Shown here: positions 8,100 through 24,116 of the stretch, piece after piece | How positions within the stretch are numbered: position 1 is the first letter of the stretch | How the letters are laid out: each line of letters starts with the position of its first letter | NCBI RefSeq assembly: GCF_016127575.1 | Contig: NZ_CP066020.1 | Coordinates: 150,001 to 182,000, forward strand | DNA from: Cupriavidus necator | Lineage (GTDB): Bacteria > Pseudomonadota > Gammaproteobacteria > Burkholderiales > Burkholderiaceae | DNA length: 32,000 nucleotides | Reading direction: 5' to 3' | Position numbers and translations under genes: made by a program | The notes under the pieces: model-generated | The model's database searches: none | What the model saw: the letters and a program-made list of their open reading frames with translations, nothing else | What the model was told of the DNA's origin: nothing

Positions 8100-8420
8100 A
8101 TGCAAAAGATCTTGGCAGTTTGTGCAATTGCAGCCGCGTCAATACTCGTGTCAGGTACCGCCCAGGCAAGGGTGGACGTGGGAATTGGCATCGGTATCCC
8201 TGGTGTCGTTATTGCTGCGCCGCCGCCCCCGGTGTACTACGAACCGGCCCCTGTCTATGTTGCACCACGCCCTGTAATCGTGGCACCCCCGCCCGGTTAT
8301 TACGACGACGATTGGCAAGCGCGCGCCTGGCGCGAGGAACAGTGGCGTGAACAGCGATGGAGGGAGCGTGAATGGCGAGAGCGCCATCGCAGGTGGCACC
8401 GCTGGCATGACGACGATTGA
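8100..8420 (+). CDS. Small exported protein with PxPV-type proline repeats and a W/R/E-rich tail
   Basis: 106 aa with a signal-peptide-like N-terminus, MQKILAVCAIAAASILVSGTAQA. Next comes PPPPVYYEPAPVYVAPRPVIVAPPPGYY, then WQARAWREEQWREQRWREREWRERHRRWHRWHDDD. The Shine-Dalgarno is weak. Confidence 0.6.
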   Translation: MQKILAVCAIAAASILVSGTAQARVDVGIGIGIPGVVIAAPPPPVYYEPAPVYVAPRPVIVAPPPGYYDDDWQARAWREEQWREQRWREREWRERHRRWHRWHDDD

Positions 8421-8467
8421 CGCTCCGGAGCGCTGTACTTTTGACGCGCCGGCGCTGTACTTGGATG

Positions 8468-8794
8468 TCAGGTCGCGTGCCAAAGACAGTGGGCGCCTTC
8501 AGACGAGATGGCGATGTCGCCGACGGCGGGCAGGAGGGTCCGATAAACCATGGCGGTGGTCCCGATTCGAAGTCCCAGGGCGCCTACTCCAAAGCTGGCG
8601 AAGGTCGCCGAGATGACCCGCCACCCATTTTGTATATGTCTGGACGCAGCCAGTAGAGGGTTCGAGCCTACATCAGCCGCCCGGCACACGGCACCACGGT
8701 ACGCATTCACCAAGCGGTAGCCCGCGTAGACCTCCTGAGAATTACGCACTGCATACGGCGCCTCGTCAACAGAAGGGCCTCTGCGGCCAGCCAC
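8468..8794 (-). CDS. Hypothetical protein (weakly supported)
   Basis: 108-aa ORF with a GTG start preceded by GAGGGG 4 nt upstream, 50 nt downstream of the lipoprotein gene on the same strand. It has one hydrophobic stretch (VISATFASFGVGALGLRIGTTAMV) and no recognisable motif. Confidence 0.3.
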   Translation of the reverse strand: MAGRRGPSVDEAPYAVRNSQEVYAGYRLVNAYRGAVCRAADVGSNPLLAASRHIQNGWRVISATFASFGVGALGLRIGTTAMVYRTLLPAVGDIAISSEGAHCLWHAT

Positions 8795-8844
8795 AAGGCC
8801 CCTCTAACAGAGACTTACTTTGCTTACGTCGAGTCCTTGAGTCC

Positions 8845-9045
8845 TCAGCGGGCAGTGCTTGATCCAGTCGCTGAGCCGCTTGCGCTGCCGGCTGAGCTAG
8901 AGCCCGTGCCCGACGCGCTAGATTGAGGGCTCACACTTCCGGAGCCGGATAGTGATCCGGTACCACTGGTGCTGCCCGCGGCCGTACAGCCGGCCAAAGC
9001 GCATACGATTACTAGTGCGAACGCAGTCGAGGTCGTCTTTCTCAT
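8845..9045 (-). CDS. Small Ser/Gly-rich lipoprotein
   Basis: 66 aa, MRKTTSTAFALVIVCALAGC, with the lipobox LAGC, followed by a low-complexity S/G/T tail. GGAG lies about 6 nt upstream of the ATG. Confidence 0.6.
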   Translation of the reverse strand: MRKTTSTAFALVIVCALAGCTAAGSTSGTGSLSGSGSVSPQSSASGTGSSSAGSASGSATGSSTAR

Positions 9046-9083
9046 CTTGTGCTCCGTTTATTGGGATCGGGCTCCACGGCATC

Positions 9084-9357
9084 GTAAGCGCGCGGTGATC
9101 CCGTCTTGACGACAGCGCCGCGGTCAGGACTGCGGGAGTTGCCAGTGATGAGGCAGAAGCTCCTCGAGGCGACTTGCGGGCTGCGTTGGCAGTCGTGTGA
9201 GAACGTCTTTGAGATAGGCGTAGGGATCGTGACCGTTCAGCCTGGCCGACTGAAGGAGGCTCATGGCCGCAGCAGCGCGACGGCCTGCCCGAAGCGATCC
9301 CGCAAAGAGCCAATTGCTCCGGCCGAGAGCAACCGGACGGATCTGGTTTTCGCACCA
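9084..9357 (-). mobile_element. IS66-family element, tnpC-distal end fragment (terminus GTAAGCG at 9084)
   Basis: The plus strand from 9084 reads GTAAGCGCGCGGTGAT, the GTAAGCG terminus typical of IS66-family inverted repeats. The fragment contains the last 77 codons of tnpC and is interrupted at 9357/9358. Confidence 0.7.
9124..9357 (-). pseudogene. tnpC: IS66-family transposase TnpC, C-terminal fragment (split gene)
   Basis: Hand translation of the reverse strand gives WCENQIRPVALGRSNWLFAGSLRAGRRAAAAMSLLQSARLNGHDPYAYLKDVLTRLPTQPASRLEELLPHHWQLPQS*. This is the conserved IS66 TnpC C-terminus and is in frame with ...WPISNN at 18982. Confidence 0.85.
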
Positions 9358-9487
9358 GTTATGCCGGCTCCCCGATTATGCCGCGTCGTGCACGCGCATG
9401 ACGGTGGGTATGGCCTTTCATGATCGCTGTGTCGGCATAAACATATGATGTCTCAGGCTGGCTAATGCGCTGGCCAGGAGAGATCAG

Positions 9488-10720
9488 ATGAATGCAACAC
9501 GCACAGTCAGCGAATCCGGCGGGCTGCCGGCCCATCACATCGATGCATTTCTTGATCGTCTACGGACGGCACACTATTCCGAGGTATCGCTTCGCAAGAA
9601 ACGAAGAGTCCTGTGCGTGTTCTCCGGGTGGATGAAGAACAGGAACATTGACCTGATCGATCTCGATGAGTCTGTCACGGCTCGTTTTATGAATCGCATG
9701 ATCGACGCTTCAAGAGACCGCGTCCAGCGTGCGCGTCCCACCTTACGGCAGTTTCTTGCCTATCTGCGCGCGGAAGCCATTGTGTGTTCGCCGACGTTGG
9801 GCGGCCAGTCCGAGATTGCGCGCATTTATCGCCGATACCTGGACCATCTGAGGCAGGATCGTGGACTCGCGAAGAACTCGCTGCTCGTCTACGGCCCCTT
9901 CATTCGCGACTTTCTCGACAGCCACTCGGCCAACGACGGAACGATATTGGCAGATGCATTTTGCGCCGTAACGATCCGAGATCATTTCCTTACCTACAGC
10001 GAAGGTCGATCGGCGGAGTACACGCGGCTGATGGCAGTTGCGCTTCGCTCGTTCTGCCATTTCCTCTTTCTGCGCGGCGATACGGCCCGAGACCTGTATG
10101 AGTCAGTGCCGTCAGTTCGTAAGTGGCGACAGTCAACTGTACCGACGTTCCTCACGCCTGAGCAGCAAGAAGCTCTCATTGCGTCCGCAGACCGGTCGAC
10201 TCCGACTGGGCGCCGTGACTACGCAATCCTGCTGTTGTTGGCGCGGCTCGGTCTACGTGCCGGAGAAATAGTTGCCATGCAGCTCGACGACATTCACTGG
10301 CGTTCGGGGGAACTCGTCGTTCATGGCAAGGGGCAGATGGTGGAGCACGTCCCCCTGCCATCGGAGGTCGGAGCAGCAATCGCTACATATCTCCGCGATG
10401 GTCGCGGAGCAAGTGCATCGCGGCACGTATTCCTTCGTAGATTGGCACCTCGGGTTGGTCTGGCGGGACCGGCGGCGATTGGCAAGATTGTTTGTCAGGC
10501 CTTCGCACGTGCAGGTTTCCGCCCCGCGTGCCGTGGTTCCGCACATCTGTTCCGTCACGGTCTGGCGACGACGATGATTCGCCACGGGGCCTCGATCGCA
10601 GAAATAGCTGAGGTCTTGCGGCACCGCTCACCGGACAGTACCGCGATCTATGCAAAGGTCGCGTTCGAGGACCTGCGCGGGGTCGCGCGCTCGTGGCCCA
10701 CGGCGGGAGGTGCAATATGA
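9488..10720 (+). CDS. Tyrosine recombinase, RIT subunit A (outer copy L)
   Basis: 410 aa with LARLGLRAGE (catalytic Arg region), HLFRHGLATTM (H-x-x-R box) and STAIYAKV (catalytic Tyr). The stop overlaps the next start (ATGA). Confidence 0.9.
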   Translation: MNATRTVSESGGLPAHHIDAFLDRLRTAHYSEVSLRKKRRVLCVFSGWMKNRNIDLIDLDESVTARFMNRMIDASRDRVQRARPTLRQFLAYLRAEAIVCSPTLGGQSEIARIYRRYLDHLRQDRGLAKNSLLVYGPFIRDFLDSHSANDGTILADAFCAVTIRDHFLTYSEGRSAEYTRLMAVALRSFCHFLFLRGDTARDLYESVPSVRKWRQSTVPTFLTPEQQEALIASADRSTPTGRRDYAILLLLARLGLRAGEIVAMQLDDIHWRSGELVVHGKGQMVEHVPLPSEVGAAIATYLRDGRGASASRHVFLRRLAPRVGLAGPAAIGKIVCQAFARAGFRPACRGSAHLFRHGLATTMIRHGASIAEIAEVLRHRSPDSTAIYAKVAFEDLRGVARSWPTAGGAI

Positions 10721-11664
10721 CTTCGATCCGTGACTCCCTCGCTCGGTACGTGGCGGTCCGCCGCGCTCTCGGGGCATCATTCTATGAACCTGCATTGGCA
10801 CTCGGTCATTTCGTTGATCTTCTGGAACATGAAGACGCAGAGTTCATTACTACCGATCTGGCTCTGCGCTGGGCGATGACGCCCGCACTCGTCGAACGCG
10901 CCACCTGGGGGCGGCGCCTCTCTCAAGTGAGAGGATTCGCCAGATGGATGAACGTCATTGACGGTCGAAACCAGATTCCTCCAGCAGGACTCCTGAGTGC
11001 CCGCAGACGGCGCAATGCCCCGCATATTTACACGGAGCAGGAAATTGATCTGCTTATGACCCGCGCCGCTCAACTGCGATCCCGAACCGGCATGCGAGCA
11101 CTGACCTATTCGACGCTCATCGGGCTTCTTGTAGCGACGGGCCTCAGGCCAGGCGAAGCGCTTCGGCTCGACCGGTCCGACGTTGACCTCGTCAGCGGGA
11201 TACTCTCCATCCGGGAATCGAAGTTCGGCAAATCGCGCTTTGTTCCTGTAGCAGAGTCGACCCGGGTGGCACTCGAACACTATGCCAAGAAACGCGATCA
11301 ACTCTGTCCTTCACGATTGAGCGAGGCGTTCCTGGTTAGTGAGCGCGGCAAGCGATTGAAGGCCGGAACTGCACGAAGCATGTTCGTCAGAATGTCGCGC
11401 GCTGTCGGTCTGCGATCGGCGACAGAGGATGGGCGCGATGGTTACGGCCCGCGCCTCCAGGACTTCCGGCATAGCTTCGCGACGGGAAGGCTGGTCGAAT
11501 GGTATCGCGCCGGTCTGGACGTAAGTCGAGAACTGCCGAAACTTGCCGCCTACCTCGGGCATGTCAACATCGGTCTTACGTACTGGTACATCGAAGCGGT
11601 TCCTGAGTTGCTTGAACTCGCGGCAGCCTATCTCGACAAGGACTGTCCGGGAGAACGGCCGTGA
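10717..11664 (+). CDS. Tyrosine recombinase, RIT subunit B (outer copy L)
   Basis: The start is trimmed to ATG 10717 (MTSIRDSL), overlapping the ritA stop. Motifs are ATGLRPGEA, QDFRHSFAT and GHVNIGLTYWYI. The stop overlaps the GTG start of the next gene (GTGA). Confidence 0.9.
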   Translation: MTSIRDSLARYVAVRRALGASFYEPALALGHFVDLLEHEDAEFITTDLALRWAMTPALVERATWGRRLSQVRGFARWMNVIDGRNQIPPAGLLSARRRRNAPHIYTEQEIDLLMTRAAQLRSRTGMRALTYSTLIGLLVATGLRPGEALRLDRSDVDLVSGILSIRESKFGKSRFVPVAESTRVALEHYAKKRDQLCPSRLSEAFLVSERGKRLKAGTARSMFVRMSRAVGLRSATEDGRDGYGPRLQDFRHSFATGRLVEWYRAGLDVSRELPKLAAYLGHVNIGLTYWYIEAVPELLELAAAYLDKDCPGERP

Positions 11665-12459
11665 GCGCCGCCAGCCTCCCAGCCCTGGTTCAGCGCTTCT
11701 TCACCCAGCGCCTGCTCGAGCAGCAAGGTCTGAGTTCGCATACGGTGGCAAGTTACCGTGACACGTTCCGGCTGCTGCTGGCGTTCGCCACTAAGCATAT
11801 CGGGCGCGCGCCGTCAAAGCTCCGAATCGAGGACTTCGACGTGTCGTTGATCGAGGAATTCCTGCAGCACCTCGAACACGGCAGAGGCAATTCTGTGCGC
11901 ACACGCAACACGCGGCTTGCCGCCGTGCATGCCTTCTTCCGGTTCGTCGCAGTCAGCGAGCCTGCGTTGTTTCTGCAGTGTCAGCGCATTCTTGCAATCC
12001 CATCCAAACGCTGCGAGCACGGCCCAGTTGAGTTTCTGACCGAGAGCGAGGCCGCCGCTCTGGTAGGGGCGCCTGACGTACGAAACTGGATCGGCAACCG
12101 CGACCGAACGCTGCTTCTTGTAGCGGTTCAAACGGGTCTGCGCAATAGCGAATTGACCGCACTCCGGCGTCAGGATGTGACGCTCGGCACAGGCGCCCAC
12201 GTTCGTTGCCTTGGCAAAGGCAGAAAGATGAGATGCACTCCGCTGCGACCGGATGTAGTTGCCGTCCTGAAACAGTGGCTGCTGTATCAACCAGGCGAAC
12301 CAGGTGATCCGGTCTTCCCCAGTTCGCGCGGTGGTCATCTCAGTGCCGATGCTCTTCAGCGACTCGTTTCGCGCAACGCTGAGATCGCGCGCCTCTCGTG
12401 CCCCTCGCTGAAGAAGAAATCAATAACGCCTCATACGCTTCGGCACTATATGCCCTTCC
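11661..12459 (+). pseudogene. Tyrosine recombinase, RIT subunit C, 3'-truncated (outer copy L)
   Basis: Identity with copy R ends after ...SITPHTLRHYMPF at base 12459. The region carrying the catalytic Tyr is missing. The track ORF runs on to 12596 only by reading into the inner element. Confidence 0.85.
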
Positions 12460-12576
12460 CGACTATGTCTTGTAATCGAAAGATAGCTCTCTATTTCATG
12501 GGCAAACGGATGCACGGAGATAGAGATAGTCTTGACTCCTTCCTTCAGCCCCAGAGCATCCGGGAAGGAGTCCATC

Positions 12577-13815
12577 ATGAGATACACCATCCATGACCGT
12601 GTCGTTCTCGCACACGCACCAGAAGGCCCGCTCGCGTCCCATATCGTCGCCTTTGCGAACTCGATCGCTGTGCAGGGATACAGTACGCAGTCACTGAAGT
12701 ACCACGTTAGGCTCGTTGCAGGTTTTAGCCGCTGGCTTGGCCGAAACGGAATTGACTTGCATAACGTCTGTCCTGATCACAGTGCGCAATACTTACGTTA
12801 TCGTGCGCGGCACGTGCGACCGGGTCCGGGAGACCGTGCTGCGCTCAGGCATCTCATTGATTTTCTCGATCGTGAGAGGCTGATTTCGGCGCAGAGAATG
12901 CCTGAGCGTCGGCTGACCCCTATTGAGTCCTGTACACAGGCTTACGTTGAGTATCTGCATGAGGCGCGCGCCCTGTCCAAAGCAACGATCGTCAATTACG
13001 TGCCGTTCATAAGGGAGTTTCTCGAAGATTGCTTTGGTGACGGGCGCATCAGGCTTTCGCGTTTGCGTGCCGGCGATGTCGTGAACTTTGTGCAATGTCA
13101 GGCACTGCGTCTGCATCTGAAGCGCGCGAAGCTCATGACTACAGCGCTGCGATCCTTCCTACGTTACGCGTGCTATCGGGGCGACATGACGCTCGATCTG
13201 GCCGCCGCTGTTCCCGTCGTGGCCAACTGGTCGATGCAGTCAATCCCTCGCGGGATTCCACCAGAGCAGATACAGCAACTGCTGGTCAGTATCAATCGAC
13301 GGACTGCCGTTGGTCGTCGTGATTACGCCATCATCCTGCTGCTCGCGCGCCTGGGACTGCGTTCTGGGGAAGTGGCATTTCTCGAGCTCGACGATATTGA
13401 CTGGAACACAGGAGTTTTAAGCGTGCGCGGCAAGAGTGGCCAGCGTAACGGGCTGCCTTTGCCCGCCGATGTTGGAAAGGCGATTGCAGCATACCTTCGA
13501 GACGGGCGACCGCAGAGCACCAGTCGCCGTGTGTTTTTGCGTGCAAAGGCGCCTGTTATCGGCTTTCGTGGTGCGAGTGGCGTGGGCTCCATCGTTCGGC
13601 ACTCGCTCCAGCGCGCCGGCATCGACGCCCCAACCACGGGGGCGCACCAGTTTCGCCATGGACTGGCCTGCCAGATGCTCAGTCACGGCGCGTCACTCAG
13701 TGAGATTGGTGAGTTGTTGGGACATCATCATCCGCAGACCACGAAGATCTACACGAAGGTCGACATCAAGGCATTGCGTACCCTGGCCGTACCGTGGCCG
13801 GGAGGTGTGCGATGA
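12577..13815 (+). CDS. Tyrosine recombinase, RIT subunit A (inner element)
   Basis: The start is trimmed to ATG 12577 (MRYTIHDRV), preceded by GGAAGGAG. Motifs are LARLGLRSGE, HQFRHGLACQM and TTKIYTKV. It is paralogous to outer ritA. Confidence 0.9.
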   Translation: MRYTIHDRVVLAHAPEGPLASHIVAFANSIAVQGYSTQSLKYHVRLVAGFSRWLGRNGIDLHNVCPDHSAQYLRYRARHVRPGPGDRAALRHLIDFLDRERLISAQRMPERRLTPIESCTQAYVEYLHEARALSKATIVNYVPFIREFLEDCFGDGRIRLSRLRAGDVVNFVQCQALRLHLKRAKLMTTALRSFLRYACYRGDMTLDLAAAVPVVANWSMQSIPRGIPPEQIQQLLVSINRRTAVGRRDYAIILLLARLGLRSGEVAFLELDDIDWNTGVLSVRGKSGQRNGLPLPADVGKAIAAYLRDGRPQSTSRRVFLRAKAPVIGFRGASGVGSIVRHSLQRAGIDAPTTGAHQFRHGLACQMLSHGASLSEIGELLGHHHPQTTKIYTKVDIKALRTLAVPWPGGVR

Positions 13816-14756
13816 ACACGCTGCGGCAGGCCGTTCAGGAGTATCTGGACCTCAGGCGGAGCTTGGGCTTCAAGCTTAAAGATGCCGGCAAGGCATTGCC
13901 TGATTTCGTCGCGTTTATGGAGAGGCACCGCGCTTCCTTCATCACCCAGGCATTGGCTCTTATGTGGGCCCAGCAACCTTCCAACGTCCAACCCGCGCAC
14001 TGGGCGCGACGACTCAGTATCGTGCGCGAGTTTGCACGTCATCGTAGTGCGACCGACCCACGCACACAGATTCCTGCACCGGGTCTGCTGCCGTTTTCGC
14101 CGAAGCGGGCCCGACCATACCTATACTCGAGCGATGAGATTCGCAGACTACTCCATGCTGCGCTTCAGATACCCTGCCGCTACGCGCGCGACGAACTGCA
14201 ACCATGGACCTATTACTGCCTGTTTGGCTTGCTGAGCGTTTCGGGCATGCGTCTGGGCGAAGCGCGCAATCTTGAGCTTCAGGACATCGATCTGACGGCG
14301 GCAATATTGACGATTCGCGGCGCCAAACTTGGCAAGTCCCGGTTCGTTCCAATGCATGCGTCGACCTGCAAAGTGCTCGCGGACTATATTGCACGACGCA
14401 AACGTCATTGGGCGGGGCGACCCGTGTCCTCCTACTTGTTCGTGTCTAACCAGGGCAATCGTCTGGATAGTGGAGAGATTCATCGACACTTCTATGCATT
14501 GTCCCGGCAGATCGGTCTGCGTGGCGCAGCCGACAGTCACGGCCCGCGTCTGCATGACATGAGGCACGTATTTGCGACGAATACGCTTTTACGCTGGTAC
14601 CGTTCCGGACAGGACCCCGAGCGCCGCCTGCCCATCCTGTCAGCTTACCTCGGTCACGTCCACATCGCGGATACGCAGTGGTATCTGAACGCCTCGCCGG
14701 AGCTGATGCGCGAGGCGATGCGCCGGCTGGAACAGCGCTGGGAGATTCAACCATGA
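13812..14756 (+). CDS. Tyrosine recombinase, RIT subunit B (inner element)
   Basis: ATG 13812 (MNTLRQAV) overlaps the ritA stop (ATGA). Motifs are VSGMRLGEA, HDMRHVFAT and GHVHIADTQWYL. Confidence 0.9.
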   Translation: MNTLRQAVQEYLDLRRSLGFKLKDAGKALPDFVAFMERHRASFITQALALMWAQQPSNVQPAHWARRLSIVREFARHRSATDPRTQIPAPGLLPFSPKRARPYLYSSDEIRRLLHAALQIPCRYARDELQPWTYYCLFGLLSVSGMRLGEARNLELQDIDLTAAILTIRGAKLGKSRFVPMHASTCKVLADYIARRKRHWAGRPVSSYLFVSNQGNRLDSGEIHRHFYALSRQIGLRGAADSHGPRLHDMRHVFATNTLLRWYRSGQDPERRLPILSAYLGHVHIADTQWYLNASPELMREAMRRLEQRWEIQP

Positions 14757-15751
14757 CTACTACCGCCAGTCTCGCTCCGTTGCTGGAGCGTTTTTTTACG
14801 CAACGCCTGATGCAGCAGCGCCAGGCGAGTCCCCACACGATCAGTTCCTATCGCGACACCTTTCGTCAGTTCCTGAAGTTCGCGCAGCAACGCCTGCACC
14901 GGCAGCCTTCACGCATGAATTTCGAGGAAATCGATGCCCCTTTGATCGTTGCATTTCTCGATGACCTGGAGCAGCGTCAGGGCGTGAGCGTTCGCAGTCG
15001 AAATCTTCGCCTCACGGCAATTCATTCCTTCTTTCGTTACGCGGCGCTCGAGACGCCGGCTCATTCCGCTCAGATCCAGCGGGTGCTTGCTATCCCCAGC
15101 AAGCGCTTTACCCGCACCCTGGTGCAATTCCTGACTCGCCAGGAAGTCGATGCCCTGCTTGCCGCACCGGACCAGCGTACCTGGGCCGGCCGACGCGATC
15201 ACGCCTTTTTGCTGGTCGCCGTGCAAACTGGCCTTCGCCTGTCCGAGATGACCGGACTCAAACGCGATGACCTTGTTCTCGGAACCGGTGCTCACGTGCG
15301 GGTGATTGGCAAGGGTAGGAAAGAGCGTTGTACGCCCATCGTCAGATCCACGCTCGCCGTACTGAAAGCTTGGCTGCGGGAACCCCAGCGCGGTGAGGAC
15401 GACGTGCTGTTTCCAAGCGCGAGGGGCGAACGCCTCACTGTTCATGGCGTGCAGTATCTGCTAAACAAGCATCGAGAGACCGCGTCAAAAATTTGTCCAT
15501 CGTTGAAGCAGAAACAGGTCACCGTTCACCGTTTGAGGCATACGATGGCCATGGACCTTCTGCAGGCGGGCGTTGATCGTTCCGTGATTGCACTGTGGCT
15601 CGGGCATGAATCGGTGGAAACCACGCAGATCTATCTCGAAGCGACACTTGCGATGAAGGAGCAGGCTCTTGCGAAGACATCTCTGGCTCACGGCAAGCCA
15701 GGACGCTACCGGCCGGCAGACGAACTTCTCGGCTTCCTGAATGGACTGTAG
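14753..15751 (+). CDS. Tyrosine recombinase, RIT subunit C (inner element, full length)
   Basis: ATG 14753 (MTTTASLAPLLERFFTQRL) overlaps the ritB stop (ATGA). Motifs are QTGLRLSEM, HRLRHTMAMDL and GHESVETTQIYLEA (catalytic Tyr present). Confidence 0.9.
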   Translation: MTTTASLAPLLERFFTQRLMQQRQASPHTISSYRDTFRQFLKFAQQRLHRQPSRMNFEEIDAPLIVAFLDDLEQRQGVSVRSRNLRLTAIHSFFRYAALETPAHSAQIQRVLAIPSKRFTRTLVQFLTRQEVDALLAAPDQRTWAGRRDHAFLLVAVQTGLRLSEMTGLKRDDLVLGTGAHVRVIGKGRKERCTPIVRSTLAVLKAWLREPQRGEDDVLFPSARGERLTVHGVQYLLNKHRETASKICPSLKQKQVTVHRLRHTMAMDLLQAGVDRSVIALWLGHESVETTQIYLEATLAMKEQALAKTSLAHGKPGRYRPADELLGFLNGL

Positions 15752-15849
15752 GGCCACGAAACTATGTCGGGTAGTGACGGGGGATGGCTCCACAACAAGT
15801 GCGCATCGGACGAGCACGGAGGCAAATCCCTCATTACCCGATATAGTCA

Positions 15850-16648
15850 GGAAGGGCATATAGTGCCGAAGCGTATGAGGCGTTATTGATTTCTTCTTCA
15901 GCGAGGGGCACGAGAGGCGCGCGATCTCAGCGTTGCGCGAAACGAGTCGCTGAAGAGCATCGGCACTGAGATGACCACCGCGCGAACTGGGGAAGACCGG
16001 ATCACCTGGTTCGCCTGGTTGATACAGCAGCCACTGTTTCAGGACGGCAACTACATCCGGTCGCAGCGGAGTGCATCTCATCTTTCTGCCTTTGCCAAGG
16101 CAACGAACGTGGGCGCCTGTGCCGAGCGTCACATCCTGACGCCGGAGTGCGGTCAATTCGCTATTGCGCAGACCCGTTTGAACCGCTACAAGAAGCAGCG
16201 TTCGGTCGCGGTTGCCGATCCAGTTTCGTACGTCAGGCGCCCCTACCAGAGCGGCGGCCTCGCTCTCGGTCAGAAACTCAACTGGGCCGTGCTCGCAGCG
16301 TTTGGATGGGATTGCAAGAATGCGCTGACACTGCAGAAACAACGCAGGCTCGCTGACTGCGACGAACCGGAAGAAGGCATGCACGGCGGCAAGCCGCGTG
16401 TTGCGTGTGCGCACAGAATTGCCTCTGCCGTGTTCGAGGTGCTGCAGGAATTCCTCGATCAACGACACGTCGAAGTCCTCGATTCGGAGCTTTGACGGCG
16501 CGCGCCCGATATGCTTAGTGGCGAACGCCAGCAGCAGCCGGAACGTGTCACGGTAACTTGCCACCGTATGCGAACTCAGACCTTGCTGCTCGAGCAGGCG
16601 CTGGGTGAAGAAGCGCTGAACCAGGGCTGGGAGGCTGGCGGCGCTCAC
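15850..16648 (-). pseudogene. Tyrosine recombinase, RIT subunit C, 3'-truncated (outer copy R)
   Basis: Same sequence as 11661..12459, ending ...HTLRHYMPF. The track ORF continues to 15485 only by reading into the inner element. Confidence 0.85.
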
Positions 16649-17592
16649 GGCCGTTCTCCCGGACAGTCCTTGTCGAGATAGGCTGCCGCGAGTTCAAGCA
16701 ACTCAGGAACCGCTTCGATGTACCAGTACGTAAGACCGATGTTGACATGCCCGAGGTAGGCGGCAAGTTTCGGCAGTTCTCGACTTACGTCCAGACCGGC
16801 GCGATACCATTCGACCAGCCTTCCCGTCGCGAAGCTATGCCGGAAGTCCTGGAGGCGCGGGCCGTAACCATCGCGCCCATCCTCTGTCGCCGATCGCAGA
16901 CCGACAGCGCGCGACATTCTGACGAACATGCTTCGTGCAGTTCCGGCCTTCAATCGCTTGCCGCGCTCACTAACCAGGAACGCCTCGCTCAATCGTGAAG
17001 GACAGAGTTGATCGCGTTTCTTGGCATAGTGTTCGAGTGCCACCCGGGTCGACTCTGCTACAGGAACAAAGCGCGATTTGCCGAACTTCGATTCCCGGAT
17101 GGAGAGTATCCCGCTGACGAGGTCAACGTCGGACCGGTCGAGCCGAAGCGCTTCGCCTGGCCTGAGGCCCGTCGCTACAAGAAGCCCGATGAGCGTCGAA
17201 TAGGTCAGTGCTCGCATGCCGGTTCGGGATCGCAGTTGAGCGGCGCGGGTCATAAGCAGATCAATTTCCTGCTCCGTGTAAATATGCGGGGCATTGCGCC
17301 GTCTGCGGGCACTCAGGAGTCCTGCTGGAGGAATCTGGTTTCGACCGTCAATGACGTTCATCCATCTGGCGAATCCTCTCACTTGAGAGAGGCGCCGCCC
17401 CCAGGTGGCGCGTTCGACGAGTGCGGGCGTCATCGCCCAGCGCAGAGCCAGATCGGTAGTAATGAACTCTGCGTCTTCATGTTCCAGAAGATCAACGAAA
17501 TGACCGAGTGCCAATGCAGGTTCATAGAATGATGCCCCGAGAGCGCGGCGGACCGCCACGTACCGAGCGAGGGAGTCACGGATCGAAGTCAT
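16645..17592 (-). CDS. Tyrosine recombinase, RIT subunit B (outer copy R)
   Basis: The translation is identical to 10717..11664. Confidence 0.9.
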   Translation of the reverse strand: MTSIRDSLARYVAVRRALGASFYEPALALGHFVDLLEHEDAEFITTDLALRWAMTPALVERATWGRRLSQVRGFARWMNVIDGRNQIPPAGLLSARRRRNAPHIYTEQEIDLLMTRAAQLRSRTGMRALTYSTLIGLLVATGLRPGEALRLDRSDVDLVSGILSIRESKFGKSRFVPVAESTRVALEHYAKKRDQLCPSRLSEAFLVSERGKRLKAGTARSMFVRMSRAVGLRSATEDGRDGYGPRLQDFRHSFATGRLVEWYRAGLDVSRELPKLAAYLGHVNIGLTYWYIEAVPELLELAAAYLDKDCPGERP

Positions 17593-18821
17593 ATTGCACC
17601 TCCCGCCGTGGGCCACGAGCGCGCGACCCCGCGCAGGTCCTCGAACGCGACCTTTGCATAGATCGCGGTACTGTCCGGTGAGCGGTGCCGCAAGACCTCA
17701 GCTATTTCTGCGATCGAGGCCCCGTGGCGAATCATCGTCGTCGCCAGACCGTGACGGAACAGATGTGCGGAACCACGGCACGCGGGGCGGAAACCTGCAC
17801 GTGCGAAGGCCTGACAAACAATCTTGCCAATCGCCGCCGGTCCCGCCAGACCAACCCGAGGTGCCAATCTACGAAGGAATACGTGCCGCGATGCACTTGC
17901 TCCGCGACCATCGCGGAGATATGTAGCGATTGCTGCTCCGACCTCCGATGGCAGGGGGACGTGCTCCACCATCTGCCCCTTGCCATGAACGACGAGTTCC
18001 CCCGAACGCCAGTGAATGTCGTCGAGCTGCATGGCAACTATTTCTCCGGCACGTAGACCGAGCCGCGCCAACAACAGCAGGATTGCGTAGTCACGGCGCC
18101 CAGTCGGAGTCGACCGGTCTGCGGACGCAATGAGAGCTTCTTGCTGCTCAGGCGTGAGGAACGTCGGTACAGTTGACTGTCGCCACTTACGAACTGACGG
18201 CACTGACTCATACAGGTCTCGGGCCGTATCGCCGCGCAGAAAGAGGAAATGGCAGAACGAGCGAAGCGCAACTGCCATCAGCCGCGTGTACTCCGCCGAT
18301 CGACCTTCGCTGTAGGTAAGGAAATGATCTCGGATCGTTACGGCGCAAAATGCATCTGCCAATATCGTTCCGTCGTTGGCCGAGTGGCTGTCGAGAAAGT
18401 CGCGAATGAAGGGGCCGTAGACGAGCAGCGAGTTCTTCGCGAGTCCACGATCCTGCCTCAGATGGTCCAGGTATCGGCGATAAATGCGCGCAATCTCGGA
18501 CTGGCCGCCCAACGTCGGCGAACACACAATGGCTTCCGCGCGCAGATAGGCAAGAAACTGCCGTAAGGTGGGACGCGCACGCTGGACGCGGTCTCTTGAA
18601 GCGTCGATCATGCGATTCATAAAACGAGCCGTGACAGACTCATCGAGATCGATCAGGTCAATGTTCCTGTTCTTCATCCACCCGGAGAACACGCACAGGA
18701 CTCTTCGTTTCTTGCGAAGCGATACCTCGGAATAGTGTGCCGTCCGTAGACGATCAAGAAATGCATCGATGTGATGGGCCGGCAGCCCGCCGGATTCGCT
18801 GACTGTGCGTGTTGCATTCAT
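17589..18821 (-). CDS. Tyrosine recombinase, RIT subunit A (outer copy R)
   Basis: The translation is identical to 9488..10720. Confidence 0.9.
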   Translation of the reverse strand: MNATRTVSESGGLPAHHIDAFLDRLRTAHYSEVSLRKKRRVLCVFSGWMKNRNIDLIDLDESVTARFMNRMIDASRDRVQRARPTLRQFLAYLRAEAIVCSPTLGGQSEIARIYRRYLDHLRQDRGLAKNSLLVYGPFIRDFLDSHSANDGTILADAFCAVTIRDHFLTYSEGRSAEYTRLMAVALRSFCHFLFLRGDTARDLYESVPSVRKWRQSTVPTFLTPEQQEALIASADRSTPTGRRDYAILLLLARLGLRAGEIVAMQLDDIHWRSGELVVHGKGQMVEHVPLPSEVGAAIATYLRDGRGASASRHVFLRRLAPRVGLAGPAAIGKIVCQAFARAGFRPACRGSAHLFRHGLATTMIRHGASIAEIAEVLRHRSPDSTAIYAKVAFEDLRGVARSWPTAGGAI

Positions 18822-18948
18822 CTGATCTCTCCTGGCCAGCGCATTAGCCAGCCTGAGACATCATATGTTTATGCCGACACAGCGATCATGAAAGGCCATA
18901 CCCACCGTCATGCGCGTGCACGACGCGGCATAATCGGGGAGCCGGCAT

Positions 18949-18984
18949 AACGCGGTTCATGCCGCTAGCGGCATGAACCGCGTT
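18949..18984. repeat. Perfect 36-bp palindrome at the right junction of the RIT composite
   Basis: AACGCGGTTCATGCCGC TA GCGGCATGAACCGCGTT, checked base by base and symmetric about 18966/18967. It spans the last 3 nt of the arm, 30 nt found only at this junction, and the first GTT of tnpC. Confidence 0.9.
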
Positions 18985-20334
18985 GTTCGAGATCGGCCAG
19001 GTTCCGTTCTCGATGTAGCGCACGAGCTTTGGCCACTGCCCATGCAGGTAGTGCAGCGCCTTGCCGAACAGGCTTTGCGGCAGTACGGTATGCAGGTGTT
19101 GCAGCAGCATCGTTTCGATCTCGGCCAGCAGCGGCTGGCTTTGTTCGGCGCGAACTTGCTGCCGTTGTTCCGGCCTCATCTCGAGCGTGTGGCGTTCGAT
19201 GGCAAACAGCTTGCCGATGCGCTGCAGGAATCCGGTGACCGTGTGGTCGGCGCGCTTGTCCTTGGGCAAGGCTTGCTCCGCCTCGACCAGGTAGCGCCGC
19301 GCGTGCGCCCAGCATCCGAGGTGCACCAACTGATAGGTGTTTGCGACGTCGTCGTATGGTGCATAGCCGTCGGTCATCAACACCGCCCCAGGCTTGATGC
19401 CGGCATAGAGAGCCGTAGCCTGCTTTGTCTCGCGTGTGGGGCTATAGGCAAACAACCGTACCGGCGGGCCCGTGCCATTCATCTGCGCCCATAGGAAGCT
19501 CTTTCTCTGGGCAGGCCTGCCGGGCTCCTTGAGCACCTGTACCGTTGTCTCATCACCGTACACGACGTCTGCTTCCAGCAGATGGTCACGCAGCAGGTTG
19601 ATGATTGGCTGCACCGCTTGGCCTACTCGCACTATGCTTGCGGCCAGGGTGCCGCGAGAGAGGTCCCCGCCGAAGCGATGCAGCAGCGCTGCCTGGCGGT
19701 ACAGCGGCAGGCCATCCTGATACTTCGAGGTGATGCACCAGGCCAGCGCCGATTCGGTAAGGAGTCCCTTGGGAATAATGCGTGCCGGTGCCGGCGTCGT
19801 CTTGATGCCGCCGTCGCAGCATGGGCAGGCGTACTTGACCCGCTGGTGCTGGATCACGCGGACCTGTTGCGGCACGATGTCGAGCTGTTCGCTGACCTCA
19901 ACGCCAATCTCGACCAGAGTCTGGCCATCGAGGGGGCAGACGCGTTCCGATTCGGGTAGTTCGTGACGAACCTCGACACGGGGCAGCGCCGGGTCGAGCG
20001 GCTTACGGCCACGCTTCTTGCGTGTGTGCCCGGCCACTTCGGTCTCGGGCGTACCTTCTTCTTCCTGCGCCGGCTGCGCGGCCGCTGCCGCCATGGCTTC
20101 GGCCTCATTGAGGAACAAGTCCTTCTGCTCCGAGCCTCGCGCCTCGCTCTTGGCGGCGAACAGCTTACGCTGGAACGCCTTGAGCTGTTCCAAGAGCAGG
20201 TCTCGCTGGACCGTCATCACACGCAGCTCGCCCTTGATTGCCTCGCGTTCCGCGAGTATTGCCTTGAGCTCGCGCTCGGCGTCTCGCAACAGTTGCAGCT
20301 CGGCGGCGGTAACGGTGACGGGCGTGGATGGCAT
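18982..20334 (-). pseudogene. tnpC: IS66-family transposase TnpC, N-terminal fragment (split gene)
   Basis: It starts MPSTPVTVTAAELQLLRDAERELKAIL (coiled coil), has Cys pairs VCPLDG...YACPCCDG, and runs on to ...YIENGTWPISNN. The track ORF tail (AVHAASGMNRVMPAPRL...) is read-through into the insertion. The 451 and 77 codons reconstitute a 528-aa TnpC. Confidence 0.85.
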
Positions 20335-20365
20335 GGCGGGTTAGACCGCTGCCGCCAAGCAGCGT

Positions 20366-20716
20366 TCACGCAGCGCGATGGTATTCTCGGTGCGGGTGCC
20401 GGCGCATCGCCTCGATGTCAATTCCCTCGAGCAGCCAGTGCAACTGTTCGACCGTCAGCGTGGCCACCGACGCCTCGCGTGGCCAAGCAAACCGGTCCGC
20501 CTCCAATCGCTTCAACAGTAGCCAGAAGCCGTTGTGATCCCAGCCGAGAATCTTGATGCGATCGGCCCGCTGGTTGCGGAACACAAATACAGCAGATGCA
20601 AACGGATCCAGCCCGAGCGCCTGCTCGACCAGCAGTGCCAGACCGTTGATGTTCTTACGGAAGTCCACAGCGTCGCGATGCAGGTACACCCGCAGCCCAG
20701 CGTCGAGGCGAAACAT
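20366..20716 (-). CDS. tnpB: IS66-family accessory protein TnpB (Orf2)
   Basis: The start is trimmed to ATG 20716. The product is 116 aa: MFRLDAGLRVYLHRDAVDFRKNINGLALLVEQ...VFVFRNQRADRIKILGWDHNGFWLLLKRLE, typical of IS66 Orf2. Confidence 0.85.
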   Translation of the reverse strand: MFRLDAGLRVYLHRDAVDFRKNINGLALLVEQALGLDPFASAVFVFRNQRADRIKILGWDHNGFWLLLKRLEADRFAWPREASVATLTVEQLHWLLEGIDIEAMRRHPHREYHRAA

Positions 20717-20753
20717 CAATGGCCTCCATTCAGGGCTTCGATCATTGCCCTTA

Positions 20754-20791
20754 GGGGTAATCGTCCTTTTCTTGCAGATTGATACGGTTAT
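20754..20791 (+). repeat. Tn3-family left terminal inverted repeat
   Basis: GGGGTAATCGTCCTTTTCTTGCAGATTGATACGGTTAT. It matches the reverse complement of 24079..24116 at about 32/38 positions. Confidence 0.85.
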
Positions 20792-20907
20792 CAATCAGCC
20801 CAGAGTCCCTTGTTGGCGTGGCGTTGCAGCCCATTCGTTGACCTTATTGCGGCCATCCGAGCACTTGTCGTACAGTTTTGACCCGAACGACACCCCGAAA
20901 AGTGTAG

Positions 20908-23847
20908 ATGTCGGCATTTGCGTATCGCTACGTTGGCAGGGAAGAGTTGCCTGCCCGCTTGACAGAATTTGACCTACGGCAGTTTTTTCAGCTCACCAGT
21001 GCTGACATCGCGGCAATACGGGAGCGGTTTCGGGCCGACAGATACGCCGCGGTCGGCCTACAACTCGTTTGCCTCCGGGCCTTCGGTCGGCCGTTGGACC
21101 GGTTTGCTGCCGTTCCGCGAAATCTCCTTCAGTACGTGTGCGAAACTTTTTCCGTGCCGCTGTTGTCGATTGCCAGTCTGAAGACGCTGTACCAACGACG
21201 CCCGACGTTGTACGAGCATCAGCAATGGGTCAAGGAGCACCTTGGCATCAAGCCGTTCGATGACACCAGCCAGGCCGCTTTGCTGGAAATGCTCCGCGTG
21301 CAAGCTGCCGCAGCGGCAGACGTGGATGAGCTTGTCACCACCGCTCAGCGATGGCTCTACGATCGCTGCCGCCTCATTCCCGGCCAGCGCCAGATCACCG
21401 ACATGGCACGGCATGCATTTTCCGCCTACGAGGCGCAAATGCTCGCAGCGGTTAACCGCGCAGTGCCGGCGGCCACGCTGCAGCACTGCATGGAATCCGT
21501 CCGCAGTCCACGGGCTGACGGCTCTGCAACGCACCTCGAGTGGATCAAGGCGCCGTCCAGGCGCAACGGCCCCAAGAACCTCGCTGAAACGCTGGACAAG
21601 ATCCGCTACCTGAAGTCCCTCGCTGTGCACGAGTGGAATCTGGATGACATCGCTTTGCCCAAACTGCGTGCCTATGCGCAGAAGGTGCAAGCAAGGCGTC
21701 CGGCCAAGACCAAAGCACTGAAGGAGAGCACCCAGGCGCTTGAACTGGTGTGCTTTCTACGGATGAGTTTGCTGGAACTCACCGATATCGCGATGCACCA
21801 GACTAGCCGACGCAGCCAGGATCTGTTCCGACGCGCGGCCAGCACGGCGCAGTCGACGCACACCCGCTCCGCCGTGGAAGACAGGCAGCAGGCGCTCAAG
21901 GCCAAGGCCGTCCTGCAAGACAAGAGCAAGTCGACCGAGCAGCGAGTGGATGAAGCCCTGAAGCACCTTGCCGTCGTCACCGACGCGGCGCATTCGAGCT
22001 TTGCGTCACACGTGCGCGCGGCGCTGACCGGTGACCATCAGCGGATTCACGCTCTGCTGTCGGGCCTGGAAGGCCTGGAATTCGGCGGCAGGGAGGACGA
22101 TCCCGGCTTTGCGAACCTCAAGGCATGGCGCGACCTGCAGACAAGGAAGCTCAATGCTCTGCCAGAAGACTTTACCGAAAGCGGCGTTGGCACGGCGTGG
22201 CATGACCTCGTCCATGATCCTGACCCAAAGCGCGGCTATCAGGCCTTCTCTGCCTGCACGATGATGTCGCTACGAAATAGCCTGCGTCGGGGCAGCGTAT
22301 GGATTGACCACTCGATGCGCTTTCGTGATCGCGACCAAATGCTCATCCCTGCCAAGGAGTGGGAGCGCGACCGTGTCAAGTATCTCGGGCTATTGGGCCT
22401 GCCAGCCGCGGCTGATACCTACATCGAACAGCTACTGGATACGCTTCGTGCTGGCGTGGCTGCTGTGGCCGAGGCCACCGCTAACGGCAAGATCGAAATA
22501 GGAGACGATGGCATGCTTCACCTGCCGGCGATTGTGCCGCTGGAGCAGGACGATGAACCGCGCCGCACACGCGACTTGATCTACAAGACAATCGGCGATG
22601 TGCAATTGCCGGACCTATTGCTGGAGGTCGACGCCTCGACCAATTTCAGCGAGGTGCTGCTCGGGCACCGGGCGAAGTCCGTGCCCGAACTGCTGTCGAC
22701 CTACGCGGCGTTGCTCGCCCATGGCACCGAGATCGATGCCAAGGGCATTGCTGCGATGATTCCCGGCATCGACACCGCCCAGGTGTCACTTGCCATGCGA
22801 GGGCTGGAGACCCATGGCCGTTTGCGCCGGGCCAACGAGGTGGTGGCTGAATTTCAAGGAAAGATCCCATTAGCCACGAACTGGGGCACCGGGCAGAAGG
22901 CATCGGCCGACATGATGTCGCTGGACGTTTCACGACATCTGTGGATCGCTCGTGTTGATCCACGTCGACGCACCTACGCGACCGGCATCTACACCCACGT
23001 GCTCGATAAGTGGGGCATCGTCTATGACCAACCGATTGTCTTGAACGAGCGTCAGGCTGGGGTGGCCATCGAGGGCGTAGAGCAGCACAACCGCTGCGAG
23101 GACCGTATCCGCCTGTCGTTACTGGCAGTGGACACGCACGGCTACACGAACGCCGCGATGGCCTGGGCAAAGGGCTTGAGTTTCGATCTATGCCCGCGGC
23201 TGCGCGATCTGTCGGAGCGCAAACTGTATCTGCCTGCAGAGTTTAAAGTGCCAGAAGGGATCGAGCGTGTCACCACGAAGCGCTTGTCCTTGAGAGCCAT
23301 ACGCCTGGGTTGGGACGATTTCCTACGGGTGCTGGCATCGATCCGTATCGGCCGCATTAGCGCTGAGCTCGCCATGCAACGGTTGGGCAGCGCTGCCCGG
23401 ACCAACAGGGCACACAAAGCTGCCGAGCATCTCGGCCGGCTGTTGCGTAGCATCTTCCTGTGCGACTACGTGACCATTGAAGACTTCCGCCGCGAAATCC
23501 ATACGTTGCTCAGCCGAGGGGAGTCGGTGCACCAGTTGCAGCGCGCGATCCATGCTGGCCGGGTGCCACACGAACGCGGCCGGCGAGGCGATGAGATGAC
23601 GGCGATCTCGGGGGCGCACGCGCTTCTGACCAACATCGTTCTGGCGTGGAATACCCACCGCATGAACGATGTCGTCGAGCGACTTCGCAAGGGCGGCACG
23701 AACATCGAGGACGCTTGGCTGCGCCGCATGGGGCCGGGGCATTCCGGGCACATCAACTTCCGGGGGATCCTCAGCTTCGGTGTCGAGCGCTACATTGACG
23801 CGCTGATCCGAGGCAGTGGCGCAACAACCCGACGGGCTATGGCATAA
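20908..23847 (+). CDS. tnpA: Tn3-family DDE transposase
   Basis: 979 aa. The N-terminus (LTEFDLRQFFQLTSADIAAIRERFRADRYAAVGLQLVCLRAFGRPL) resembles the Tn3 TnpA N-terminal domain. The size and position between GGGG-type 38-bp inverted repeats fit the family. Confidence 0.9.
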   Translation: MSAFAYRYVGREELPARLTEFDLRQFFQLTSADIAAIRERFRADRYAAVGLQLVCLRAFGRPLDRFAAVPRNLLQYVCETFSVPLLSIASLKTLYQRRPTLYEHQQWVKEHLGIKPFDDTSQAALLEMLRVQAAAAADVDELVTTAQRWLYDRCRLIPGQRQITDMARHAFSAYEAQMLAAVNRAVPAATLQHCMESVRSPRADGSATHLEWIKAPSRRNGPKNLAETLDKIRYLKSLAVHEWNLDDIALPKLRAYAQKVQARRPAKTKALKESTQALELVCFLRMSLLELTDIAMHQTSRRSQDLFRRAASTAQSTHTRSAVEDRQQALKAKAVLQDKSKSTEQRVDEALKHLAVVTDAAHSSFASHVRAALTGDHQRIHALLSGLEGLEFGGREDDPGFANLKAWRDLQTRKLNALPEDFTESGVGTAWHDLVHDPDPKRGYQAFSACTMMSLRNSLRRGSVWIDHSMRFRDRDQMLIPAKEWERDRVKYLGLLGLPAAADTYIEQLLDTLRAGVAAVAEATANGKIEIGDDGMLHLPAIVPLEQDDEPRRTRDLIYKTIGDVQLPDLLLEVDASTNFSEVLLGHRAKSVPELLSTYAALLAHGTEIDAKGIAAMIPGIDTAQVSLAMRGLETHGRLRRANEVVAEFQGKIPLATNWGTGQKASADMMSLDVSRHLWIARVDPRRRTYATGIYTHVLDKWGIVYDQPIVLNERQAGVAIEGVEQHNRCEDRIRLSLLAVDTHGYTNAAMAWAKGLSFDLCPRLRDLSERKLYLPAEFKVPEGIERVTTKRLSLRAIRLGWDDFLRVLASIRIGRISAELAMQRLGSAARTNRAHKAAEHLGRLLRSIFLCDYVTIEDFRREIHTLLSRGESVHQLQRAIHAGRVPHERGRRGDEMTAISGAHALLTNIVLAWNTHRMNDVVERLRKGGTNIEDAWLRRMGPGHSGHINFRGILSFGVERYIDALIRGSGATTRRAMA

Positions 23848-24078
23848 CTGCCATCGAACGCCGCAGAGCAAAATCTGCCACAGATTGGCACACCGCAGTG
23901 GCTCGAGGCCGAAATACGGCAGTACCTTCGCAGCGGCAGCTACGACAGCAGCTTCGCAGGCCGGCCAGGCATACTGGCGAGACAGTGCCTGCCAACCGCG
24001 TACCAATCCGCAAAGAAAGGACGGTGCAGCGCGAAACGAAGAACCGCTAAGTCATTGTTCTAGAACGTCTTTTTAAGC

Positions 24079-24116
24079 CTGACCGTATCAATCTGCTGCA
24101 AAAGGACGATTACCCC
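24079..24116 (-). repeat. Tn3-family right terminal inverted repeat
   Basis: Its reverse complement reads GGGGTAATCGTCCTTTTGCAGCAGATTGATACGGTCAG. Confidence 0.85.

Follow-up and report, generated by a model that had tools for sequence, protein, structure and literature searches.

Introduction

Recombinase-in-trio (RIT) elements, which have been little studied, occur commonly on plasmids and in genomic islands of bacteria, and those of Cupriavidus and other bacteria were reportedly described by Van Houdt et al. in 2009 and 2012 and by Ricker et al. in 2013. Cupriavidus necator H16 is in wide use as a production strain. Here we focused on a 32,000-nucleotide (nt) stretch of C. necator DNA (NZ_CP066020.1, positions 150,001 to 182,000; hereafter, the window), which contains a 9.6-kb mirror-image block on the megaplasmid pHG1. 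The block consists of two inverted copies of one RIT (hereafter, the outer RIT, whose copies form the arms) around one copy of another (the inner RIT). It belongs, in rearranged form, to a known class of elements, and is likely a genuine recombination product that joined two separate outer RIT copies head-on across the single inner RIT.

pHG1 is the plasmid richest in RITs and carries "complex combinations" of truncated RIT genes; a repeat search in the same study was unconvincing and gave no convincing binding sites beyond the inverted repeat and an overlapping palindrome (PMC3414803). The Rit proteins have been classed as Xer-like simple tyrosine recombinases (PMC8138268), hairpin intermediates have been the subject of speculation (PMC5737581), and the target specificity and movement of RITs are listed as not tested (PMC10214605). 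The RITs of the window resemble the known ones in having ritA (~410 aa), ritB (~315 aa) and ritC (~330 aa) on the same strand with 4-bp overlaps; like them, they end in inverted repeats, measure about 3.4 kb and are found in several identical copies on one replicon. They differ in that one is nested in the other at a fixed codon, the host RIT is mirrored and the nested RIT has no palindrome. None of these papers offers a target rule, a model of the attachment site or a description of the block. As far as we checked, the rules of target choice, the constant spacing and the state without a palindrome reported below are apparently undescribed, and Ricker et al. 2013 may already describe some of them.

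Results

A mirror-image block of nested RITs

Window positions 9000-19400 are 100% identical to pHG1 of C. necator H16 (NC_005241.1, 127856-138256; a window position equals the record position minus 118856). In a base-by-base alignment of 9358-12459 with the reverse complement of 15850-18951, 3102/3102 positions matched, and a repeat finder stretched the arms to 3119 nt solely via 17 imperfect bases. No similarity between the two sides was detected past the outer arm ends. The right limit of the inserted block is at 18982, which takes in a 20-bp palindrome (18957-18976) and its 6-bp spacers, present on the right side only.

The left copy of the outer RIT (9359..12439, plus strand) encodes ritA (9488-10720), ritB (10717-11664) and the 5' part of ritC (from 11661), and starts with a 27-bp terminal repeat, TTATGCCGGCTCCCCGATTATGCCGCG, at 9359-9385. 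The right, inverted copy (15870..18950, minus strand) has the ritC 5' part up to 16648, ritB at 16645-17592 and ritA at 17589-18821, and its terminal repeat at 18924-18950 is the ritA-side end again. Both arms encode a 410-aa RitA, a 315-aa RitB and a truncated RitC, with Phage_integrase domains and 4-bp gene overlaps. Within 9359..12439 the left ritC stops at the codons ...H-T-L, and the protein reads on to ...HTLRH across the junction spacer, ending there without the catalytic His and Tyr. The left copy shares 93-96% identity with intact RITs on Paraburkholderia and Caballeronia plasmids and 100% identity with an intact allele on a short-read contig (L027, below). The 27-bp outer terminal repeats have one mismatch between the two ends in L027 and are perfect in the relatives.

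The inner RIT (12446..15863, plus strand) carries ritA (12577-13815), ritB (13812-14756) and ritC (14753-15751), encoding proteins of 412, 314 and 332 aa with Phage_integrase domains and 4-bp overlaps. It is separated from the left arm by the spacer TCGGCA (12440..12445), which covers the codons L/R-H of box II and forms a crossover region common to the outer ritC and the inner RIT, and from the right arm by the mirror spacer TGCCGA (15864..15869), the reverse complement of 12440-12445. The junction itself is the common GGCAC within TCGGCA, mirrored as TGCCGA. The terminal repeats (CTATATGCCCTTCC... at both ends) are perfect over 18 bp and imperfect onward to about 35 bp. The length of the inner RIT is ~3418-3426 bp, because other copies of this element align to window positions 12442-15867, and the outer relatives and the intact allele reach only 12446.

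A preliminary description of this DNA had proposed inverted, identical arms of 3102 bp, each with ritA, ritB and a truncated ritC, around a complete and different RIT, and the full alignment, the open reading frames and the Phage_integrase domains bear this out. It had ritC cut after ...HTLRHYMPF; the truncation stands, and the endpoint moves, as ...HTLRH closes the outer RitC and the inner element supplies YMPF. The 3390 bp given for the inner RIT were too few, with the ends set 13-18 bp too far in, and the 18-bp perfect terminal repeat GGCACTATATGCCCTTCC, previously assigned to the arms, belongs to the inner RIT.

RIT membership was evaluated by gene order A (~410 aa), B (~315 aa) and C (~330 aa), short overlaps, and inverted repeats of about 28-34 bp. 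Three adjacent same-strand recombinase genes in the order A/B/C, inverted repeats and copies in differing contexts were all found. Of the catalytic motifs, all six intact Rit proteins have box II (xxRH) as well as the LGH…Y region. The identical copies in different contexts are consistent with a RIT moving as a unit. NCBIfam holds no RIT-specific models, and RitA, RitB and RitC scored best against the XerC/XerD models, below the cut-offs.

The mirror structure is present in three deposited complete assemblies (NC_005241.1/AY305378, NZ_CP039289.1 and CP196502.1). NZ_CP039289.1, a second assembly of H16, has the same 10.4 kb as the window with a single indel, in a C-run at window position 17402 in the right-arm ritB. 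It is one C shorter there, which splits ritB and makes the arms non-identical at this position; the difference is either a true variant or a homopolymer error. CP196502.1 represents a different lineage, because it lacks the ISAe1 (ISL3) insertion that H16 has elsewhere on pHG1, in the left end of the inner RIT at a second locus (below). Short-read contigs of the region end at the repeat borders.

The arms lie in two different IS66 elements

The left flank of the block (9084..9352, minus strand) is a 3' remnant of an IS66 element (hereafter, IS66-alpha) that keeps the final ~76 tnpC codons (WCENQIRPVALGRSNWLF...), with the IS end GTAAGCG at 9084; its translation reads WCENQIRPVALG… / WCENQIRPVALGRSNWLFAGS…. 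Between this flank and the outer RIT end lies the left spacer CACCAG (9353..9358), which corresponds to the target codons after ..NN, and spacers of this type have the same position and length in the relatives. The right flank (18983..20753, minus strand) is the 5' part of a second element (hereafter, IS66-beta) and contains tnpC codons 1-451 (…WPISNN), tnpB (20366-20716) and a tnpA stub. IS66 membership is supported on the right by the LZ, zinc-finger and DDE_Tnp_IS66 Pfam domains together with tnpB, and on the left by the IS66 C-terminal region and the GTAAGCG end. The right junction (18951..18982) is made up of the spacer CGCGGT, the palindrome TCATGCCGCTAGCGGCATGA (18957-18976) and the spacer ACCGCG, the standard one-sided palindrome of an outer-type insertion; the same 20-mer also adjoins outer-type RITs in L002, L004, L033, L034, L037 and L038.

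Both flanks encode minus-strand IS66 TnpC and join in frame at …ISNN-WCEN… (here and below, the hyphen after NN marks the junction). A single IS66 split by the whole block was ruled out despite this frame, because an intact IS66 relative shows that the flanks differ. An intact IS66 of Cupriavidus metallidurans BS1 matches the right flank at 99.5% identity, and its TnpC reads ISNN-PCENAIRPF / …ISNN-PCENAIRPFVIGRRNFLFCDT… across the target. The IS66-alpha and IS66-beta C-terminal parts share only 31/77 aa (40%), with no nucleotide match. The two arms represent two separate insertions, because their flanks stem from different IS66-family elements. The flanks do not derive from one locus, as in a single-locus inverted duplication, nor is there the single target with matching flanks or a duplication of a composite transposon: the flanks meet at a homologous IS66 codon of different elements. 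A homologous crossover of sister plasmids after in-situ flips was likewise dropped, since the two IS66 flanks differ.

The IS66-alpha flank also adjoins the outer RIT on plasmids of Paraburkholderia graminis and C. oxalaticus. A segment with the IS66-alpha remnant and the outer ritA end (window 9182-9357; L002; C. oxalaticus plasmid hit H14) is 94-97% identical across the three species, and the disrupted IS66 and the outer RIT may travel together.

An intact outer RIT and further inner copies

The preliminary description had suggested looking for an intact outer RIT and for other copies of the inner one, and both were found. Contig L027 (run SRR36125207) is 100% identical to window positions 8228-12446 and supplies the true 3' end of ritC. 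Past 12446 it continues with the missing ritC 3' part (full RitC, 331 aa), the other terminal repeat and the spacer TCCCTG, followed by the IS66-beta 3' part in plus orientation (98.8% aa and 99.7% nt identity to the reference) up to the IS end, and lastly 180 bp of unassigned DNA and the left end of IS882. Both IS66-beta halves are tied to the outer RIT, because L027 joins an intact outer RIT to the IS66-beta 3' part.

An inner RIT copy at a second pHG1 locus (locus 2, record 29-46 kb; L006, L008 and L011) was 100% identical, and copies in metagenome and read-set contigs, where the flanks differ, were 99.7% identical. At locus 2 the identical inner RIT is simply inserted in a paralogous ritC: the host RIT has ritA, ritB and a truncated ritC, and beyond the insertion come the palindrome and then the remaining 3' part of ritC. 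Next to it, a 94%-related inner-type RIT lies in the opposite direction inside another recombinase fragment. By comparison, a motif search of the window detected no inner-type palindrome on either side of the inner RIT, and the outer ritC 3' part is likewise not present.

P. graminis (L002) has the left junction type by itself, and Caballeronia (L004) likewise has just the right type, in which the palindrome lies by the ritA end. Palindrome-less RITs with mirrored IS66 flanks recur in L027 (mirrored 3' flanks) and in P. humisilvae (L035). The outer-type RIT has four copies in P. humisilvae. A genome scan for intact outer ritC recovered Paraburkholderia and Burkholderia copies only and none in Cupriavidus, and no contig >1 Mb encodes an identical RitA.

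Several related loci show other arrangements. On a P. sabiae plasmid (L003, 7089-9735), 2.6 kb with another integrase gene lie between the RIT and its palindrome, and the IS66 halves are in normal order; something may have integrated at the intact site of this RIT. In P. humisilvae, L034 (4967-7415) has the palindrome on both sides of an outer-type RIT, with the IS66 5' part as right flank and a left flank that ends in …SNN codons and is too short to be confirmed as IS66; it may be the counterpart of the palindrome-less state. Also in P. humisilvae, the outer-type RIT of L036 (347-1937) has shrunk by internal deletion to 1.6 kb between its terminal repeats, with one side next to the IS66 3' part. 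A metagenome scan for the order inverted repeat-6 bp-palindrome-6 bp-inverted repeat, the candidate layout of a circle junction, retrieved a perfect 124-nt palindrome at the end of a 1.1-kb contig (L040, Ga0137363_10420363, 990-1115), in which the 20-bp palindrome, with a 6-bp spacer on each side, lies between two ritA-side repeats. It is ambiguous, as a head-to-head pair or a fold-back artefact would look alike, and was not used as evidence.

Target rules and site layout

The outer RIT targets IS66 TnpC at residue ~450 (…NN-xx-E(N/R)xIRP). IS66 matches on either side of outer-type RITs break at TnpC 450-456 in all ten loci examined, which come from Paraburkholderia, Caballeronia, Burkholderia and Cupriavidus. 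Read across the insertion, the order is IS66 3' part, 6-bp spacer, RIT (TTATGCCG…trio…CGGCATAA), 6-bp spacer, TCATGCCGCTAGCGGCATGA, 6-bp spacer and IS66 5' part. The trio occurs in both orientations, with ritC by the palindrome in L002 and ritA by the palindrome in L004 and the window, and the palindrome side is constant, always toward the IS66 5' part. The outer RIT brings the palindrome in, because intact IS66 has none. The 6-bp spacers by the palindrome often mismatch the local IS66 target (window 18977-18982; L004 7089-7094), and in L004 the spacer agrees with the target in a different IS66, which looks like a carry-over from a former site.

Inner-type RITs, either identical or 77-94% related, abut the …L-R-H codons (box II) of tyrosine-recombinase genes in 8/8 independent contexts: the window, pHG1 locus 2 (two contexts), one context common to four metagenome and read-set contigs, and four further plasmids (Paraburkholderia FT54, Aromatoleum EbN1, Cupriavidus KK10 and Rhizobium). 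At the other end, most contexts have a palindrome (CTATATCGT-NN-ACGATATAG in close copies) followed by the 3' part of the target gene. The targets include ritC of other RITs (pHG1 locus 2 and EbN1), and one appears, by gene positions, to be a ritB. The inner insertion falls at L-R-H, and the host RitC therefore loses its catalytic His and Tyr. That both arms of the window are cut at the same nucleotide, as the preliminary description had noticed, is explained because the inner RIT always targets these codons.

Each unit of inverted repeat, spacer and palindrome fits a dif/lox-type sequence pattern, with constant 6-bp spacing at 10 or more junctions. Judging from this pattern, the unit of inverted repeat, 6 bp and palindrome arm may be a dif/lox-type core site, of which an integrated RIT would keep one intact, and an excised circle junction would hold the core site twice, in opposite orientation. 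Tentatively, and with somewhat less than even confidence, we propose that RITs use a double dif-like attachment region (inverted repeat, 6 bp, 20-bp palindrome, 6 bp, inverted repeat), and that RIT lineages are specialized on catalytic-motif codons of other mobile elements, namely IS66 TnpC residue ~450 and box II L-R-H, including that of rival RITs.

IS882 next to the right flank

IS882, a Tn3-family element (20754..24116, plus strand), follows IS66-beta, with inverted repeats at 20754-20787 and 24083-24116 and tnpA at 20908-23847. IS66-beta is truncated within tnpA exactly at the IS882 inverted repeat. The IS882 left end thus abuts the interior of IS66-beta tnpA in the window and different DNA in L027, which suggests an IS882-adjacent deletion or inversion. 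An adjacent deletion fits, because the 5-bp sequences that border IS882 (CCTTA, left; ACGAT, right) do not form a target duplication.

Discussion

Origin of the mirror-image block

In the favored scenario, one outer copy would have resided in IS66-alpha and another in IS66-beta, and the inner RIT would have entered outer ritC at the L-R-H codons. The intact site of the inner RIT in the first outer copy could then have recombined with the empty L-R-H target of the second (route a), or RecA could have recombined two inner RITs sitting in two outer copies in opposite orientations (route b). Both routes would yield exactly the observed junctions, and the sequence does not separate them. Either would lose the inner palindrome, both ritC 3' parts and all DNA between the copies, immediately by deletion if the copies were convergent, or via an inversion and then an IS882-adjacent deletion. 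The recombination between the outer copies was probably a deletion. BLAST of pHG1 1-150 kb and plasmid-wide searches detected neither the outer ritC 3' part nor the IS66-beta 3' part on pHG1. Nor was the reciprocal product seen there: BLAST of the same 1-150 kb gave no match for the L027 spacer DNA or for a 5' part of IS66-alpha. As the block stands, both outer copies would be without an active RitC, and the inner RIT could at most flip, because its junctions are inverted only.

The preliminary description had reasoned that a simple insertion would leave the ritC 3' part on one side, which is sound, as pHG1 locus 2 has such an insertion. Among the origins it had listed, a fusion of two copies is supported by the two different IS66 flanks and by the normal palindrome-bearing junction of the right arm. 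An inversion-duplication, a hairpin or a replication-fork event on a single copy does not fit flanks from two IS66 elements.

Several points weigh against the fusion of two outer copies. Neither an ancestral plasmid with both outer copies nor the reciprocal product was found, and the order of events is a reconstruction for this reason. L027, a short-read contig of 5 kb, comes from a single run, and its IS66-beta right flank is oriented opposite to the right flank of H16, because of which an extra inversion or IS882-adjacent deletion has to be assumed. The spacer by the IS66-beta flank is ACCGCG and not the IS66-beta target CAGGGA, and the right arm may have come to this flank through a previous exchange instead of inserting there directly. 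The suggested intact site is read from a sequence pattern, and PMC10214605, PMC3414803 and PMC5737581 give no experimental RIT recombination reaction.

The alternatives are judged much less likely. A fold-back or template switch during replication of a single nested element, in which the strand switches at the 18-bp repeat and copies ritC'-ritB-ritA outward, would give exactly the observed junction, and the perfect 18-bp inverted repeat at the inner ends could mediate such a switch. The copied strand should, however, enter the IS66-alpha 3' flank in reverse, whereas the right arm ends in spacer, palindrome and spacer followed by a different IS66 5' part, which would take one more precise switch, into another element. 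Mirrored flanks around a RIT that lacks its palindrome are also found in other genomes without any duplication (L027 and L035), and we regard the fold-back explanation as very unlikely. An improbable possibility is that the mirror form is a one-step outcome of RIT transposition, with one inner RIT joining two targets via two opposite attachment sites and no normal insertion beforehand. Such an outcome would agree with the predicted circle junction, which would have two core sites in opposite orientation, and with the palindrome-less and possibly double-palindrome RITs elsewhere (L027, L035 and L034). It is pure inference, the metagenome scan recovered no circle junction or intermediate, two outer copies would still be needed, and the sequence does not distinguish this possibility from route (a).

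A collapsed or chimeric palindromic contig, also raised in the preliminary description, is almost certainly not the explanation. Large perfect inverted repeats are known to mislead assemblers, and the short-read contigs do break at the repeat borders. An assembly artefact is nevertheless effectively excluded, because three complete assemblies carry the structure, of which one has its own 1-nt arm difference and another belongs to a lineage whose plasmid differs at another place; both outer and both inner junctions also follow the site rules of unrelated genomes.

Implications

The block can be regarded as a recombination fossil that shows how RITs choose their targets. If RITs do use a double site, this would explain both insertion orientations, the fixed palindrome side and the one intact site per integrated copy. 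Secondary recombination at the intact site would then yield the palindrome-less, mirror-flanked RITs (the window, L027 and L035) and the solo or double palindromes (L003 and L034), and a RIT could disable the element in which it lands. The rules are now open to direct test, with two fixed targets, a constant 6-bp spacing, a one-sided palindrome and both orientations, and the locus offers a plausible route to mirror-image rearrangements. For work on pHG1, the 3.1-kb perfect inverted repeat is a likely inversion site and a pitfall in short-read assembly as well as in engineering of the genome.

Comparison with known systems

Like the sites of Xer/dif, Cre/loxP and FLP/FRT, the putative RIT sites have short inverted arms around a 6-bp center. 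The E. coli dif site reads …GCGCATAA-TGTATA-TTATGTTA…, and the outer RIT (…CGGCATAA-NNNNNN-T(T/C)ATGCCG…) is near to it. In contrast to these systems, RITs have three recombinases rather than one or two, their two sites lie back to back with a common 20-bp palindrome, and their targets are not obviously palindromic.

The spacers by the palindrome resemble the coupling sequences of Tn916/CTnDOT, the carry-over in L004 being judged from few junctions, whereas RITs lack conjugation genes, are 3.4 kb long and choose their targets strictly. Members of the Tn554 family, GInts and strand-biased circularizing elements (SEs) likewise use several tyrosine recombinases jointly for site-specific integration (PMC10214605, PMC5385486). 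Unlike RITs, they have a fourth small protein and cargo genes, and their recombinase subfamilies do not correspond one to one, by homology, to those of RITs. We know of no report of a one-sided palindrome for the Tn554 family, GInts or SEs. Finally, RecA-mediated deletion or inversion between IS copies and adjacent deletions by Tn3-family elements would produce such a final architecture; what makes the symmetry exact here is that one RIT is nested site-specifically in another, and not the recombination itself.

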